Below are positions 27,362 through 61,814 of a stretch of 64,000 bases of DNA, piece after piece; positions within the stretch are counted from its first letter, which is position 1, and every line of letters starts with the position of its first letter. The stretch comes from Kiritimatiellia bacterium (GTDB lineage: Bacteria > Verrucomicrobiota > Kiritimatiellia > UBA8416 > JABMPJ01), in the NCBI GenBank assembly GCA_030745755.1, contig JASLOA010000007.1:11974-75973 (forward strand). The letters are read 5' to 3'. The notes beneath the pieces were generated by a model. That model was not told the origin of the DNA. It saw only the letters and a list, made by a program, of their open reading frames with translations, and made no database searches. The position numbers were made by a program, and so were the translations under genes.

Positions 27362-28840
27362 TCACATATCCGCCGGGCTCTGAACCGAGAGCCCCGGCTT
27401 GTTCAGCACATGCGTGTAAATCATTGTCGTGGACACATCCGCATGCCCCAACAACTCCTGCACCGTACGGATATCGTAGTTTGCCATCAGCAGGTGCGTC
27501 GCAAACGAGTGGCGCAAGGCATGGCAGTTAACCTTCTTGGTAATGTCCGCCGCATCAGCCGCCTTCTTGATCGAGCGCTGCAAGTTACTCTCGTGGATGT
27601 GGTGCCGGCGTTCCACGCCACCTCGGGGATCGATCGAGAGCTTAACGGAAGGGAACACGTACTGCCAACGCCACTCCAGCCCGCCCTTGGGGTACTTCCG
27701 AGCCAGCGCATCCGGCAGAAACACCGGTCCCACACCAGCCTTCCGGTCCGCCGCAAACAGCTTACGCACACTCCCCATATGCTCCTTCAGAGGCGCAGCG
27801 TACTTCTTCGGGAGCATCGTCATCCGGTCCTTCTTGCCCTTTCCGGTCCGTACTATGAGCTGCTCGCTGTCGAAATCAACATCCTGCACGCGAAGACGGA
27901 TACACTCCATGAGGCGTAGCCCCGACCCATAGAGCAACCCCGCCATGACATAGGGTTCTCCGGCGAGATGGGCGAAGAGGCGGTCAATCTCCCCATGCGT
28001 CAACACCACCGGCAACAGCTTCGGCCGTTTCGATCGCTGAAAGTCATTCAAATCCCCAAGGGCCTTGCCGACAACAACCTTGTAGAACAGCACCAGTGCA
28101 CAGAGCGCCTGGTTCTGCGTGGACGCACCCACGTTACGTTTGTTCGCCAGGTAGGTGAGATACTCCACGATCTCCGGTTCCGCCAGGCTGCGAGGATCCC
28201 GGTACGCATGAAACGTCAAGAAACGCGTAACCCATGTCTCATAGCTGTGCTCCGTACGAATCGAATAGTTGCGACGCCGGATTTCCTCCCTCAACGTACC
28301 CAAATCCTGGCCAAACAGGTCACGGGCCTTCATGCCATCCAGCGTATCCCGAAACACCTGCTTCGCCGCATCGGCATGCAGAGCCACCGATGCATGGGCG
28401 TAGTGTTCGATCTCCGATGCAAAATGGAGGTGAGGCGACTTCCAGTCCTCCCATGGGAAGTCCTTTGCCCACGGGGTTTTGACCACCGTCACAAACAGAA
28501 TGCGCAACGCATCGACAAACTGGCTGAACTGCCAGTCCTCGAGCCGCCCGGCAGCCACCTGCTTGGACAGATAGCCCTTAATGTCCTCTGCCGTTTTATG
28601 CCCCAGTCGGACCCGCTTTGTACTTTCGATGAAATAAACCACCCGCTTCCGAGCCCACGCCACCGCCTGTGGGTTCATCCCATCCGCAGCCAGTTGACTC
28701 TCGTAGATCTCCGACGCTATCAATGCTTGGTGGCAGGAAACCGAGCCAACCGGAACGGTTGGCTCTCTTGTCGCCTCGCGTCTCGGTGAATCCTCACCGG
28801 AGAAACGATGGCTTGTTCGTGTCTTCCTGAAGAAACTCAA
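27362..28840 (-). CDS. intI: integron integrase (IntI) with long N-terminal extension
   Basis: Tyrosine recombinase boxes ALRHSFATHLL and GHADVSTTMIYTHV. The IntI-specific additional domain ALARKYPKGGLEWRWQYVFPS is present. Extended similarity to IntI1 from LREEIRRRNYSIRTEHSYETWV onward. TTG start at 28840; first in-frame ATG gives a start at 28678. Confidence 0.9.
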   Translation of the reverse strand: MSFFRKTRTSHRFSGEDSPRREATREPTVPVGSVSCHQALIASEIYESQLAADGMNPQAVAWARKRVVYFIESTKRVRLGHKTAEDIKGYLSKQVAAGRLEDWQFSQFVDALRILFVTVVKTPWAKDFPWEDWKSPHLHFASEIEHYAHASVALHADAAKQVFRDTLDGMKARDLFGQDLGTLREEIRRRNYSIRTEHSYETWVTRFLTFHAYRDPRSLAEPEIVEYLTYLANKRNVGASTQNQALCALVLFYKVVVGKALGDLNDFQRSKRPKLLPVVLTHGEIDRLFAHLAGEPYVMAGLLYGSGLRLMECIRLRVQDVDFDSEQLIVRTGKGKKDRMTMLPKKYAAPLKEHMGSVRKLFAADRKAGVGPVFLPDALARKYPKGGLEWRWQYVFPSVKLSIDPRGGVERRHHIHESNLQRSIKKAADAADITKKVNCHALRHSFATHLLMANYDIRTVQELLGHADVSTTMIYTHVLNKPGLSVQSPADM

Positions 28841-29003
28841 GACTTACGAAAAGACAGGGGTAAGTCTTGGCGTCATGACCAATCCCGAGAGTAGACAGAG
28901 GTGGGGAACCAAACCCATAGAGATCGGCTAACAACACCTTGCACACCTACAAAATGGGCCGCGCGGACGCGTCCCATGTTGAGGGTGAAGGCGGGCGTTG
29001 GCC
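28841..29003 (+). other. attI region (putative crossover G|TTGGCC at 28997/28998)
   Basis: Lies between the intI start and the first cassette. Contains GGCTAAC (28926) and GTTGGCC (28997) core-like sites and a GGACGCGTCC palindrome. Exact architecture is unresolved. Confidence 0.5.
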
Positions 29004-29018
29004 CGGAGAACAATAGCC

Positions 29019-29048
29019 TTGCGCAGTCTTTACGGTATGACGTATTAT
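29019..29048 (+). promoter_or_regulatory. cassette promoter TTGCGC-18-TATTAT upstream of the first mazEF-like cassette
   Basis: Hexamers at 29019-29024 and 29043-29048. RBS GGAGGTG at 29055, ATG at 29066. Confidence 0.45.
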
Positions 29049-29065
29049 CATACTGGAGGTGATAA

Positions 29066-29308
29066 ATGAGCACAGCGAAAATCGCAATCACAATGGAAGA
29101 GAGTCTGGTCTCACAGGTGGACCGACTTGTCTCGTCACACATCTACCCCAGCCGCAGTCGAGCCATTCAAGAAGCAGTGGCCGACAAGCTACACCGCTTG
29201 GATCGTCGCCGCTTGGCGCGCGAATGCGCCAAGCTCGACCCACAGTTTGAACAAGCGATGTCGGAAGAGGGAATGGGTTTGGAGGTAGAGGCATGGCCAG
29301 AGTACTGA
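29066..29308 (+). CDS. CopG/RHH-type antitoxin (MazE/PemI-like)
   Basis: 80 aa. N-terminal ribbon-helix-helix region [18 protein letters not shown]. Overlaps the toxin gene. Confidence 0.7.
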
Positions 29309-29655
29309 GGGGAGATATCTTCTGGGCTGACCTCAATCCAACCAGGGGACATGAGCAAGCGGGGCTGCGCCCAGTGCTCATTCTCAGCGAAGATGTATTT
29401 AACAACCGTTCTGGGACGGTCATAGCCATTGCTCTGACAAGTCAACCGCAGCGTGCGGGCTTCCCGCTGACACTTGAACTGTCGAGTCCAAGACTCCCCA
29501 AACGCTCATGGGCAAAGATCAGCCAGGTCCGCACGTTGTCGGTCCAGCGTCTCGGGAAGAAGATTGGGAAAGCGTCCTCTGATGAACTCGACCACATCAT
29601 TGAAGGACTCAATGAGCTGATCGGGGGCCAACAAAGCCCTCGACCATACCGTTGA
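29293..29655 (+). CDS. mazF: MazF/PemK-family endoribonuclease toxin
   Basis: [27 protein letters not shown]... is the typical MazF/PemK N-terminus. Confidence 0.8.
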
Positions 29656-29704
29656 CAGCCGCTCAGAAGCGGCTGTCAACGTCTGGTCAGGGCACGCGTT
29701 GTGC
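29651..29704 (+). other. attC-like / terminator hairpin region (unresolved) ending G|TTGTGC
   Basis: Perfect 12-bp stem GTTGACAGCCGC-tcagaa-GCGGCTGTCAAC, then CAGGGCAC-gcgtt-GTGCCTG. Core sites are present (TGTCAAC, GTTGTGC) but the canonical R''/L''/L'/R' layout is unclear. Confidence 0.35.
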
Positions 29705-29717
29705 CTGAGATAATGAG

Positions 29718-29996
29718 ATGAACAGACAATCCAATCAGGAATTCATCGTAGCTGGAGTAGCTGGCGTCACCGGCATATTCATTTTGGCTATGTCGTGGTC
29801 TGAGTTCAAGACAGTGGCAGAGGATCACCCCACCATCAGTGTCTTCACTTTGGGCCTGACTCTCCTCTTTATGGGGGCAGCGAATCTTTCAACAGGACTC
29901 AAGAGGCGGCTTTGGCTTAAACAGATGAAGACACTGGGGAGCACAACAACCGAATCCACCTTATCACCTGAAGGCGCGCCTTCAGATGAAAGGTGA
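29718..29996 (+). CDS. small membrane protein (2 TM), hypothetical
   Basis: 92 aa with two hydrophobic helices. Confidence 0.45.
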   Translation: MNRQSNQEFIVAGVAGVTGIFILAMSWSEFKTVAEDHPTISVFTLGLTLLFMGAANLSTGLKRRLWLKQMKTLGSTTTESTLSPEGAPSDER

Positions 29997-60830: not shown

Positions 60831-60846
60831 CGGAGATAAGACATAA

Positions 60847-60875
60847 TTGACAATATGTACCGACTTCTGTACACT
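60847..60875 (+). promoter_or_regulatory. cassette promoter TTGACA-17-TACACT with TGTACActccTGTACA operator-like repeat
   Basis: Upstream of the phd/vapB-like gene (ATG at 60899). Confidence 0.5.
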
Positions 60876-60898
60876 CCTGTACAGATTAGAGGAAGAAC

Positions 60899-61138
60899 AT
60901 GACAACCGTAACTCTGACGGATTTCAGAAGTCACGCATCAGGTATGCTGACAAGAGTAGAACAAGGAGAGACCCTTGTGGTGCTTCGTCACGGGCGACCT
61001 ATTGCCGAAGTGTCGCCTGTTACCTGGCCGCACAGCGGTCAGCCTTCCTGGAAACGACAAGCTCTCCGCCTGTCGACCAAGGGGGCGGGGCTTTCCTCGG
61101 CCATCCTTGAGGATCGGGATCATGAAGACATTTCTTGA
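60899..61138 (+). CDS. Phd/YefM-type antitoxin (VapB role)
   Basis: MTTVTLTDFRSHASGMLTRVEQGETLVVLRHGRPIAEV. Confidence 0.7.
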   Translation: MTTVTLTDFRSHASGMLTRVEQGETLVVLRHGRPIAEVSPVTWPHSGQPSWKRQALRLSTKGAGLSSAILEDRDHEDIS

Positions 61139-61535
61139 TTCATCTGCTTTCGCAAAACGGTTTGTGGATGAAGCCGGAAGCGACAAGGTCGAGGATACCT
61201 GCGCCCAAGCCTCGGATCTTGGTCTGAGTGTGGTTTGCGTACCCGAGATCATTTCTGCGCTCAACCGTCGCCGAAGAGAGAGATCGCTAACGGCTGCTCA
61301 ATACACAAAAGCAAAGCAACAACTCCTTGATGATGTCCGCGATGCGGACATCATCCACCTTGCGGTGCCCGTGGTGGGCTCAGCCATCGGCGTTCTTGAG
61401 GCAAGCCCAGTCCGCGCCATGGATGCCTTGCACATAGCCTGCGCGCTGGAGTGGGGAGCAGAGCTGTTTGTCTCTTCAGATAGGAAACAGCTGAGCGCCG
61501 CTCGGCGCGCAGGACTGAAAACGCATGCAGTCTAG
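61122..61535 (+). CDS. vapC: PIN-domain toxin
   Basis: MKTFLDSSAFAKRFVDEAG... 137 aa PIN fold with acidic residues. Confidence 0.75.
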   Translation: MKTFLDSSAFAKRFVDEAGSDKVEDTCAQASDLGLSVVCVPEIISALNRRRRERSLTAAQYTKAKQQLLDDVRDADIIHLAVPVVGSAIGVLEASPVRAMDALHIACALEWGAELFVSSDRKQLSAARRAGLKTHAV

Positions 61536-61538
61536 ATT

Positions 61539-61597
61539 GGCCAACAGGCCCACTGGAGCGTAAGGCTAAAGCCGCCGCTCAGTGGCAAGCGTCAGGT
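61539..61597 (+). other. attC site, family A with degenerate R' (R'' GGCCAAC ... R' GTCAGGT)
   Basis: cactggagcgtaaggctaaagccgccgctcagtgg. Confidence 0.6.
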
Positions 61598-61610
61598 GAA
61601 AAGGAACAGT

Positions 61611-61799
61611 ATGACTGCCAGAAACAGCAGACCAAACATCATCTACATTCTCGACGACGACATGGGGTATGGCGACGTATCATGTTACGGCCCTGAATTC
61701 AACCGGGTGGCTACGCCAAACATAGACCTTTTGGCAAAGCAGGGAATGTCAACAGACACCCAAAGCGTTACACAGCGACACGGTAAACCGGGCGCGTGA
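61611..61799 (+). pseudogene. sulfatase N-terminal fragment (62 aa, truncated by a family-C attC)
   Basis: MTARNSRPNIIYILDDDMGYGDVSCYGPEF... is the typical sulfatase N-terminus. Runs into attC sequence and stops. Confidence 0.65.
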
Positions 61800-61814
61800 A
61801 CGCAGACGGGCCTA
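61755..61814 (+). other. terminal attC, family C, both core sites degenerate (GACACCC ... GGGCCTA)
   Basis: gttacacagcgacacggtaaaccgggcgcgtgaac. AAC and GTT cores are mutated. Last site before the GC-rich chromosomal DNA. Confidence 0.5.

Follow-up and report, generated by a model that had tools for sequence, protein, structure and literature searches.

What kind of element is formed, in the genome of an uncultured Kiritimatiellia bacterium, by an integron-like recombinase gene and the long run of palindromes that follows it? The question is raised by a 64,000-nucleotide stretch of contig JASLOA010000007.1 (assembly GCA_030745755.1; hereafter the window), for which a preliminary description, made from the letters alone, had proposed a large sedentary chromosomal integron. 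Our analysis found every feature of that description at the positions given and supports the proposal: with a probability of about 0.93, the locus is a complete sedentary chromosomal integron of a bacterium from the Planctomycetes–Verrucomicrobia–Chlamydiae (PVC) group, in which Kiritimatiellia is a class. The 33-kb element comprises an intact integrase gene (intI) on the minus strand, divergent from an array of 41 attC recombination sites that all lie on the plus strand (28926-61811), with intI within 4 kb of the attC cluster and housekeeping genes as neighbours. The threshold for a sedentary integron, earlier 19 attC sites, is now more than 10 (PMC9024848), and the array is far over it.

The recombinase, singled out at the outset for its LEWRWQYVFP patch (open reading frame (ORF) 27362-28840, minus strand), scores 431 bits against the NCBIfam model TIGR02249, 'integron integrase' (cutoff 265), and falls far under the cutoffs of the XerC, XerD and XerA models. 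Its alignment to the VchIntIA structure 2a3v covers residues 4-317 without large gaps and runs contiguously through ALKEKYPNAPYEFRWHYLFPS / ALARKYPKGGLEWRWQYVFPS; the IntI-specific additional domain between patches II and III, the absence of which, together with a lack of attC model matches, the preliminary description had named as refuting an integron, is thus present. Residues R255, K280/K283, H386, R389, H412 and Y421 are invariant columns in an alignment of the window protein with 19 homologs, the reading frame is intact with the catalytic R-K-H-R-H-Y set complete, and identity to the class 1 integrase IntI1 is 49.7% across the canonical part.

Detection of the attC sites relied on covariance models (CMs). 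The first CM, built from three seeds that all lie in the first half (33634-33691, 34932-34989 and 43953-44011; below 45 kb) and run unfiltered on both strands of the whole window, recovered the held-out sites of the second half at E values of 1e-14 to 1e-3, on the plus strand only, and returned nothing in the flanks at E<1. A refined CM (R2), built from the 16 best matches of the first, yielded 40 sites at E<=0.3, every one of them plus-strand and within 28926-61811; outside the array, the best match had an E value of 1.3. One further hairpin (57809-57887; R2 E 5.5, hairpin z -5.2) brings the total to 41, close to the roughly 42 imperfect palindromes first counted. Rejected candidates include 41435-41577, picked by eye, for which folding is unfavourable (z -1.5, ends unpaired), the weak and degenerate 46712-46767, which is not well supported (R2 E 7.3), and two CM matches inside ORFs (48510-48565 and 37448-37523; E 2.8-3.5). 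Alternative approaches were set aside: a relaxed AAC...GTT detector with hairpin energies produced 10-17 false flank sites at useful sensitivity and was dropped for the CM, and a MAFFT alignment of the mixed-length sites, not being structure-aware, was kept out of the model. Rfam, which is without an attC family, gave zero matches in the window.

Two external data sets bear on the identity of these repeats. On two plasmid-borne class 1 integrons, the window-trained CM found all six attC sites (aadA1, dfrA1, aac(6')-Ib-cr, blaOXA-1, catB3 and arr-3), each on the correct strand and immediately downstream of its gene, with one weak additional match (E 0.89). Across 54 reference-genome loci (768 kb) encoding relatives of the integrase, drawn from Verrucomicrobiota, Kiritimatiellae, Lentisphaerae, Desulfobacterota, Acidobacteria, Chloroflexi, Bacteroidota, Cyanobacteria and Gammaproteobacteria, the CM made 65 matches at E<=0.01, every one upstream of intI and 64 of the 65 on the opposite strand. 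The repeats of the window are therefore attC sites in the full sense, and a reading as palindromes of the repetitive extragenic palindromic (REP) type can be dismissed.

Their architecture agrees. In an alignment of 16 of the sites, compensatory changes occur at 17 of 22 base pairs, and 88% of cells are paired, against 28-36% when the partners are slid by one to three columns; structure rather than sequence is conserved, which is the signature of attC sites. Unpaired bases are more numerous on the R''/L'' arm than on the L'/R' arm in every one of the 40 aligned sites (mean 4.2 versus 1.3), as expected from the extrahelical L'' bases described earlier, and these sites have a conserved TA bulge in common. 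Because of this asymmetry and the conserved bulge, strand discrimination is strong, with site 34932-34989 scoring 80.8 bits on the plus strand and 16.0 on the minus. The 5'-RYYYAAC...GTTRRRY-3' cores of the preliminary description held in their central part, with AAC in the R'' box and GTT in the R' box each kept at 38/41 sites, but not as a strict consensus (RYYYAAC 6/41, GTTRRRY 7/41); since the latter is rare, pairing of the strict motifs, too strict for these sites, retrieves only 6 candidates. The sites measure 54-89 nt (median 60) and the median cassette about 700 bp. Their sequence subfamilies reappear throughout the array, the members of each being 66-100% identical to its reference copy; one of them comprises 31118-31193, 32012-32087 and 51860-51935 (80-89% identity). 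No whole-cassette duplication was found, the only repeated coding stretch being the 5' end of three BrnT genes (62-78%).

The surroundings are those of a chromosome. Directly downstream of intI lie genes for a nitroreductase, panB, folK, dapB and dapA, and the contigs carrying the locus span 66-233 kb; the element is therefore seated in an ordinary chromosome. No transposase, relaxase, or replication or plasmid gene turned up in Pfam scans of about 70 ORFs, the same scans from which the cassette genes were assigned. The drop in G+C content noted at first sight is real (left flank 1-27361, 0.611; array, 0.537; right flank 61812-64000, 0.607) and makes the array a compositional island, with values back to 0.61 at both of its sides. 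As for the host, which was rightly seen from the start as non-proteobacterial, the 438-aa IntI is 100% identical to MDP6629525.1, MDP6809232.1 and MDP7022971.1, all annotated by NCBI as 'MAG: integron integrase [Kiritimatiellia bacterium]' (MAG, metagenome-assembled genome) on contigs of up to 233 kb. Over 5-21 kb, the three other assemblies with this IntI match the window at 100% identity, which confirms the assembly and is uninformative on cassette turnover; the closest non-identical IntI (84%, locus L001) sits on an 8.5-kb contig. GC skew across the window is non-monotonic, and the 64 kb show no replication origin. The left flank also holds an exact 28-nt repeat (5833-5860 and about 23079-23106), possibly the REP-like element of the preliminary description.

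The interval between the intI start and the first attC, about 200 bp, contains a perfect palindrome (28743-28765) whose pattern, GCCAAC-N7-GTTGGC, occurs once in the window against 0.04 expected by chance. It lies about 20 bp upstream of a probable TTG start of intI, its geometry is that of tyrosine-recombinase core sites, and it bears the local R' consensus; it is the one candidate found for the core site of attI, the integration site beside intI, and could otherwise be an operator bound by IntI or a regulator. Comparison with L001 revealed no conserved attI, homology ending about 30 bp upstream of the annotated ATG, and a scan of 28300-29100 for a sigma-70-type cassette promoter (Pc) had no match; PVC promoters may depart from the sigma-70 consensus. 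Also between intI and the first attC is an inverted repeat, AAGACTTAC-N11-GTAAGTCTT (28839-28869), possibly a regulator-binding site or a small hairpin. In L001, upstream of its intI (about 378-487), TTTAGACTGC was seen by eye twice, about 90 bp apart with a GTTGGCT box in between, an arrangement reminiscent of the accessory direct repeats of attI1.

The cassettes (Table 1) are dominated by toxin-antitoxin (TA) modules. Type II TA-like pairs occupy about 22 of the 41 (about 54%), and 20 toxin-family matches exceed the Pfam gathering cutoff. MazEF/PemK (5 cassettes), BrnTA or BrnT/CopG (4) and HicAB (3) are represented most often, RelB/YafQ, ribbon-helix-helix (RHH)/ParE and PIN with a small partner ORF have two cassettes each, and RelE/Xre, Gp49/helix-turn-helix (HTH), Phd/YoeB and HigBA also occur, along with the putative pairs DUF4160/DUF2442 and DUF433/DUF5615. 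In Vibrio, it is established that TA cassettes are enriched in sedentary integrons, where they penalise excision (10.1101/2022.08.03.502626). Coding is nearly all on the plus strand, as first reported: the DUF433/DUF5615 pair (49451-50030) forms the one minus-strand cassette, and other minus-strand ORFs overlapping cassettes were rejected. ORFs were first said almost always to end 0-15 nt before a site; about two thirds stop 0-16 nt before it, and in 36 of the 38 ORF-bearing cassettes the last plus-strand stop ranges from 56 nt inside the attC to 62 nt before it.

Beyond the TA modules, the array carries two intact sulfatases (within 39345-40880; 44032-45456), a GH39-like enzyme, a beta-helix protein, a K+-channel-like protein, a PfkB kinase with an ADP-ribosylglycohydrolase, and a number of small proteins without family. 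In the PfkB/ADP-ribosylglycohydrolase cassette (57882-60130) the stop and start codons overlap and PADLOC finds no match; among the 10 unknown or large cassettes compared with PADLOC defence models, none matched. For the sulfatase at 44032-45456, a homolog with 88% amino-acid identity lies on a Joint Genome Institute (JGI) metagenome contig (L086), bracketed by attC sites at 369-449 and 1929-2008, and one with 80% lies within another attC array (L088, 6001-7996); the same sulfatase gene is therefore a cassette in at least three arrays. Those two arrays also hold typical cassette genes (glyoxalase, GNAT acetyltransferase, cupin and SMI1/KNR4). Three further cassettes contain sulfatase fragments: a C-terminal part (46077-46696), 53242-54303, and a 67-aa N-terminal piece (61596-61799). 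The first begins exactly at the GTT of the R' box of attC 23 (GTTATCTTCACCAGCGATAAT = VIFTSDN), a position suggestive of recombination at a secondary site within a gene, and two of the three partial genes abut attC sites with damaged cores.

Table 1. Features of the integron, with positions in the window. Values in the last column marked R2 are bit scores of the refined covariance model (E where given); z refers to hairpin folding.
Feature	Content or role	Position	Strand	Support
intI	integron integrase	27362-28723	-	TIGR02249 431 bits vs cutoff 265; VchIntIA alignment; invariant catalytic residues
IntI N-terminal extension	second core-binding (SAM-like) helical domain and linker	28316-28723	-	
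Perfect palindrome	GAGCCAAC-CGGAACG-GTTGGCTC; candidate attI core site or operator	28743-28765		GCCAAC-N7-GTTGGC once in window
attC 1	no ORF	28926-29003	+	R2 28.9, E 2.5e-5; z -4.3
attC 2	80-aa ORF 29066-29308; PemK/MazF toxin 29293-29655	29626-29704	+	R2 26.0; PemK 106.8 bits
attC 3	92-aa ORF 29718-29996, no family	29941-30010	+	R2 15.7, E 0.1
attC 4	K+-channel-like protein 29986-30819	30814-30877	+	R2 27.3; Ion_trans_2 47 bits
attC 5	74-aa ORF 30889-31113	31123-31197	+	R2 19.7, E 0.0085
attC 6	123-aa ORF 31208-31579	31584-31654	+	R2 24.1
attC 7	ORF 31608-32015; site paralogous to attC 5 and 31	32017-32091	+	R2 14.1, E 0.29; 80-89% identity
attC 8	DUF4160 32146-32394; DUF2442 32396-32680 (putative TA-like pair)	32648-32722	+	R2 20.4
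attC 9	94-aa ORF 32742-33026	32977-33035	+	R2 53.4
attC 10 (model seed)	BrnT-like 33072-33377; CopG-antitoxin-like 33355-33639	33634-33691	+	R2 76.3; Pfam below gathering cutoff
attC 11 (89 nt)	RelB 33759-34037; YafQ 34031-34303	34306-34394	+	R2 17.7, E 0.029; YafQ 107.8 bits
attC 12 (model seed)	RHH 34463-34681; ParE 34671-34928	34932-34989	+	R2 80.8 (+) vs 16.0 (-); z -4.6
attC 13	RelE 35021-35356; HTH/Xre antitoxin 35353-35646	35656-35714	+	R2 51.7
attC 14	PIN_3 35761-36180; RHH/HicB-like 36177-36413	36420-36501	+	R2 14.2, E 0.27
attC 15	RHH 36593-36832; ParE 36801-37106	37117-37197	+	R2 15.6, E 0.12
attC 16	218-bp cassette, no ORF	37354-37415	+	R2 31.9
attC 17	560-aa right-handed beta-helix protein 37410-39092	39119-39180	+	R2 41.0; Beta_helix 48 bits
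attC 18	60-aa ORF 39206-39388	39390-39450	+	R2 28.5
attC 19	sulfatase within ORF 39345-40880	40887-40946	+	R2 43.1; Sulfatase 152 bits
attC 20	HicB-like 41015-41224 and HicA (in 41092-41391); BrnT 41636-41917 and BrnA 41868-42131; with two TA modules, a site at 41435-41577 may have been missed, though folding there is unsupportive	42135-42195	+	R2 31.8
attC 21 (model seed)	GH39-like glycoside hydrolase 42152-43927	43953-44011	+	R2 56.9
attC 22	intact sulfatase 44032-45456	45489-45548	+	R2 38.8; Sulfatase 184.6 bits
attC 23	71-aa ORF 45617-45832; HicA 45829-46017	46019-46076	+	R2 72.2
attC 24	5'-truncated sulfatase remnant 46077-46696; weak site 46712-46767; RelB 46764-47096; YafQ 47096-47368	47372-47432	+	R2 32.7
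attC 25	Gp49/HigB-like 47482-47838; HTH antitoxin 47831-48106	48106-48162	+	R2 61.0
attC 26	Phd/YefM 48170-48472; YoeB 48448-48732	48736-48794	+	R2 75.6
attC 27	PemK-like 48930-49370	49379-49456	+	R2 22.4
attC 28	DUF433 49773-50030 (-); DUF5615 49451-49822 (-)	50029-50103	+	R2 25.8
attC 29	HigB 50155-50436; HTH antitoxin 50442-50744	50760-50817	+	R2 59.7
attC 30	zinc-ribbon protein 50828-51238	51233-51292	+	R2 33.1
attC 31	BrnT 51343-51624; BrnA 51587-51853	51865-51939	+	R2 18.3, E 0.021
attC 32, damaged R' box (GTA for GTT)	BrnT 52002-52262; CopG antitoxin 52252-52479; unknown ORF 52511-52996	53161-53217	+	R2 67.7
attC 33	sulfatase without N-terminal part 53242-54303	54259-54318	+	R2 54.6; Pfam profile positions 144-300 only
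attC 34	RHH 54401-54634; PemK 54631-54945	54962-55019	+	R2 33.3
attC 35	89-aa ORF 55018-55287; HicA 55284-55469	55472-55529	+	R2 75.7
attC 36	506-aa protein 55550-57070, no Pfam/PADLOC match	57101-57159	+	R2 37.5
attC 37 (probable)	88-aa ORF 57211-57477; HTH_3 protein 57446-57826	57809-57887	+	R2 9.4, E 5.5; CGCGAAC...GTTGGCT hairpin, z -5.2; exactly between two ORFs
attC 38	PfkB kinase 57882-58790; ADP-ribosylglycohydrolase 58787-60130	60086-60145	+	R2 55.7
attC 39	MazE 60140-60448; PemK/MazF 60436-60765	60772-60830	+	R2 46.2
attC 40, damaged R' box (GTC)	PIN-domain protein 60975-61535	61539-61597	+	R2 64.8
attC 41, terminal, degenerate (no AAC, no GTT)	67-aa N-terminal sulfatase fragment 61596-61799; array end	61758-61811	+	R2 23.5; z -2.4

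By the established integron mechanism, IntI would bind the folded bottom strand of the attC hairpin, with the extrahelical bases of the R''/L'' arm setting which strand is used, and would excise cassettes by attC x attC recombination; excised cassettes could then reinsert at attI, beside the integrase gene and within reach of a promoter able to express them. The self-expressed type II TA modules, which make up about half of the cassettes, would stabilise the array and penalise a high rate of excision, by analogy with Vibrio cholerae, and the others would form a reservoir of accessory genes, among which the sulfatases, the GH39-like enzyme and the beta-helix protein would suit the polysaccharide-degrading niche of the host. 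Present-day recombination, attI, Pc and the role of the TA modules are the steps of this scheme that we infer. Several observations weigh against a complete sedentary chromosomal integron as described here. The attC model was trained on the window, which makes its E values there partly circular, a problem that the held-out and external tests do not share; the taxonomic label depends on the name given by NCBI to a MAG; the attC sites are a heterogeneous set, with a mean pairwise identity of 0.60 and at least five sequence subfamilies, where the Vibrio repeats are very homogeneous; attI and Pc could not be defined, given the empty sigma-70 scan and the L001 homology that stops at the gene; the GTT core is gone at 53161-53217 (GTA), 61539-61597 (GTC) and 61758-61811 (GAC, also without AAC), and several cassettes are truncated; and every other assembly of the locus is 100% identical, leaving no direct sign of cassette turnover.

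The last three of these points also feed the most serious rival reading, that of a frozen relic: a true integron whose array is no longer recombined, IntI being inactive, unexpressed or without a usable attI, and which is kept as TA modules in about 54% of the cassettes make deletions lethal. The degenerate sites of the distal end and the truncated sulfatase cassettes count for such a relic. In our own reading, too, that end is decaying: the final two sites of the array are both damaged, which fits an old stretch that is rarely recombined. We nevertheless consider the relic reading unlikely. The intI frame is intact with all catalytic residues in place, 38 of the 41 sites retain both cores and the full hairpin, one cassette is common to other arrays, and the identical assemblies probably sample a single population and hence say little on turnover. 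Far more improbable is a mobile integron on a plasmid, transposon or integrative element; the low G+C content of the array recalls horizontally acquired DNA, but the flanks return to chromosomal composition on either side, biosynthetic genes follow intI on long contigs, the ORFs scanned include no mobility gene, and 41 attC sites far exceed the 10 of the largest plasmid-borne mobile integron (PMC9024848). That the palindromes are other repeats, such as REP elements, bacterial interspersed mosaic elements (BIMEs) or terminators, lying by chance beside a Xer-like recombinase, might be read from the empty Rfam search and from the strict motifs being met at only 6-7 of the 41 sites, yet it is effectively refuted: the sites lie on one strand, one per gene or gene pair, confined to the low-G+C block; covariation and bulge asymmetry match attC; the window-trained model retrieves known class 1 sites and oriented arrays beside intI in many phyla; and the recombinase passes the IntI-specific model and not the Xer ones.

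A sedentary chromosomal integron thus remains our preferred reading, and it can be placed among known systems. The V. cholerae superintegron holds about 179 cassettes, compared with 41 here. Both are chromosomal, with a divergent intI and a long array of small, mostly promoterless cassettes that are bounded by attC and lie on one strand, and the window IntI aligns over its full length to VchIntIA (2a3v); both are enriched in TA cassettes, of which the V. cholerae array has 19 (10.1101/2022.08.03.502626), their share being much higher here. Unlike the Vibrio repeats (VCRs), which are about 120 nt long and highly homogeneous, the attC sites here are short and heterogeneous, and the host belongs to the PVC group, with an additional core-binding domain at the N terminus of its IntI. 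Class 1 mobile integrons share the recombinase family, the attC architecture and the divergent layout; by contrast, the window has many more cassettes, no resistance genes, no Tn402/Tn21 context, no 3' conserved segment and no recognisable attI or Pc, and TA cassettes are almost absent from mobile integrons (10.1101/2022.08.03.502626). From the same or neighbouring phyla come the chromosomal integrons that IntegronFinder surveys have recorded in Verrucomicrobia, Planctomycetes, Chloroflexi and Spirochaetes, among other phyla (PMC4889954), together with three of the reference loci (L021, L022 and L040); those three have the same long-form IntI with oriented attC arrays upstream, the comparison with them and with the surveyed arrays being confined to 10 kb of flank. 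The literature searched described no surveyed array with this cassette content, and for integrons together with Kiritimatiella it returned only resistome surveys.

The integrase itself departs from the canonical form. Translation from the NCBI start, ATG 28678 (28676-28678), gives 438 aa, whereas an in-frame TTG 15 codons upstream (28723; 28721-28723) gives 453 aa and regains the conserved first helix of 456-aa homologs ('IASEIYESQL' in the window, 'FWxxYxxxL' in the homologs); the annotated ATG thus probably truncates the protein, the TTG being the better match. The extra N-terminal helical domain is conserved and duplicates the core-binding (SAM-like) fold of tyrosine recombinases, so that the window encodes a long-form IntI with two tandem core-binding domains. 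This form, with more than 120 close homologs and 340 clusters at 50% identity, is widespread across several phyla, occurring in Kiritimatiellia, Lentisphaerae, Verrucomicrobiota, Desulfobacterota, Zetaproteobacteria, some Gammaproteobacteria and Scalinduaceae, and its genes adjoin attC arrays in Kiritimatiellae, Verrucomicrobiota, Lentisphaerae, Desulfobacterales, Scalinduaceae and one gammaproteobacterial chromosome. In a Gammaproteobacteria MAG chromosome (L027, OZ244144.1, 393-9288), a long-form IntI lies beside at least 13 very regular attC sites of about 108 nt within 10 kb, apparently a further large sedentary integron whose repeats are homogeneous and VCR-like. A full-text literature search found no relevant description of an N-terminally extended IntI, which is absence of evidence only; by the literature searched, the tandem form is apparently undescribed. 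We tentatively entertain, at somewhat below even odds, that the extra domain gives another mode of recognition of double-stranded attI (compare the accessory IntI-binding sites of attI1) or alters assembly of the synaptic complex. Such a mechanistic variant, together with an array that is about half TA modules and circulates cassettes for sulfatases and carbohydrate-active enzymes (CAZymes), would set apart a PVC-type integron that has a biology of its own.

Integrons are already known in PVC bacteria, the protein is already named an integron integrase by NCBI, and any IntegronFinder run should find the array; the basic understanding of integrons is unchanged. The initial view that such an array is unusual outside Proteobacteria was overstated, given the several phyla with integrons (PMC4889954) and the arrays near related intI genes in MAGs of Kiritimatiellae, Verrucomicrobiota and Lentisphaerae. 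What the locus adds is a large and well-resolved sedentary integron from Kiritimatiellota; the literature searched contained no integron description for that phylum. Its noteworthy features are the very high TA share, the sulfatase and CAZyme cassettes shared between arrays, and the decaying distal end, and the integrase variant may merit a study of its own. The TA load of about 54% is an extreme case for the model in which TA cassettes stabilise large arrays, and the tandem core-binding-domain IntI offers a testable handle on site recognition by integrases outside Proteobacteria. Integron cassettes of this lineage carry niche-relevant catabolic genes, at least one sulfatase recurring between attC sites in other arrays, which links integrons to the exchange of polysaccharide-degradation functions, beyond antibiotic resistance or phage defence.

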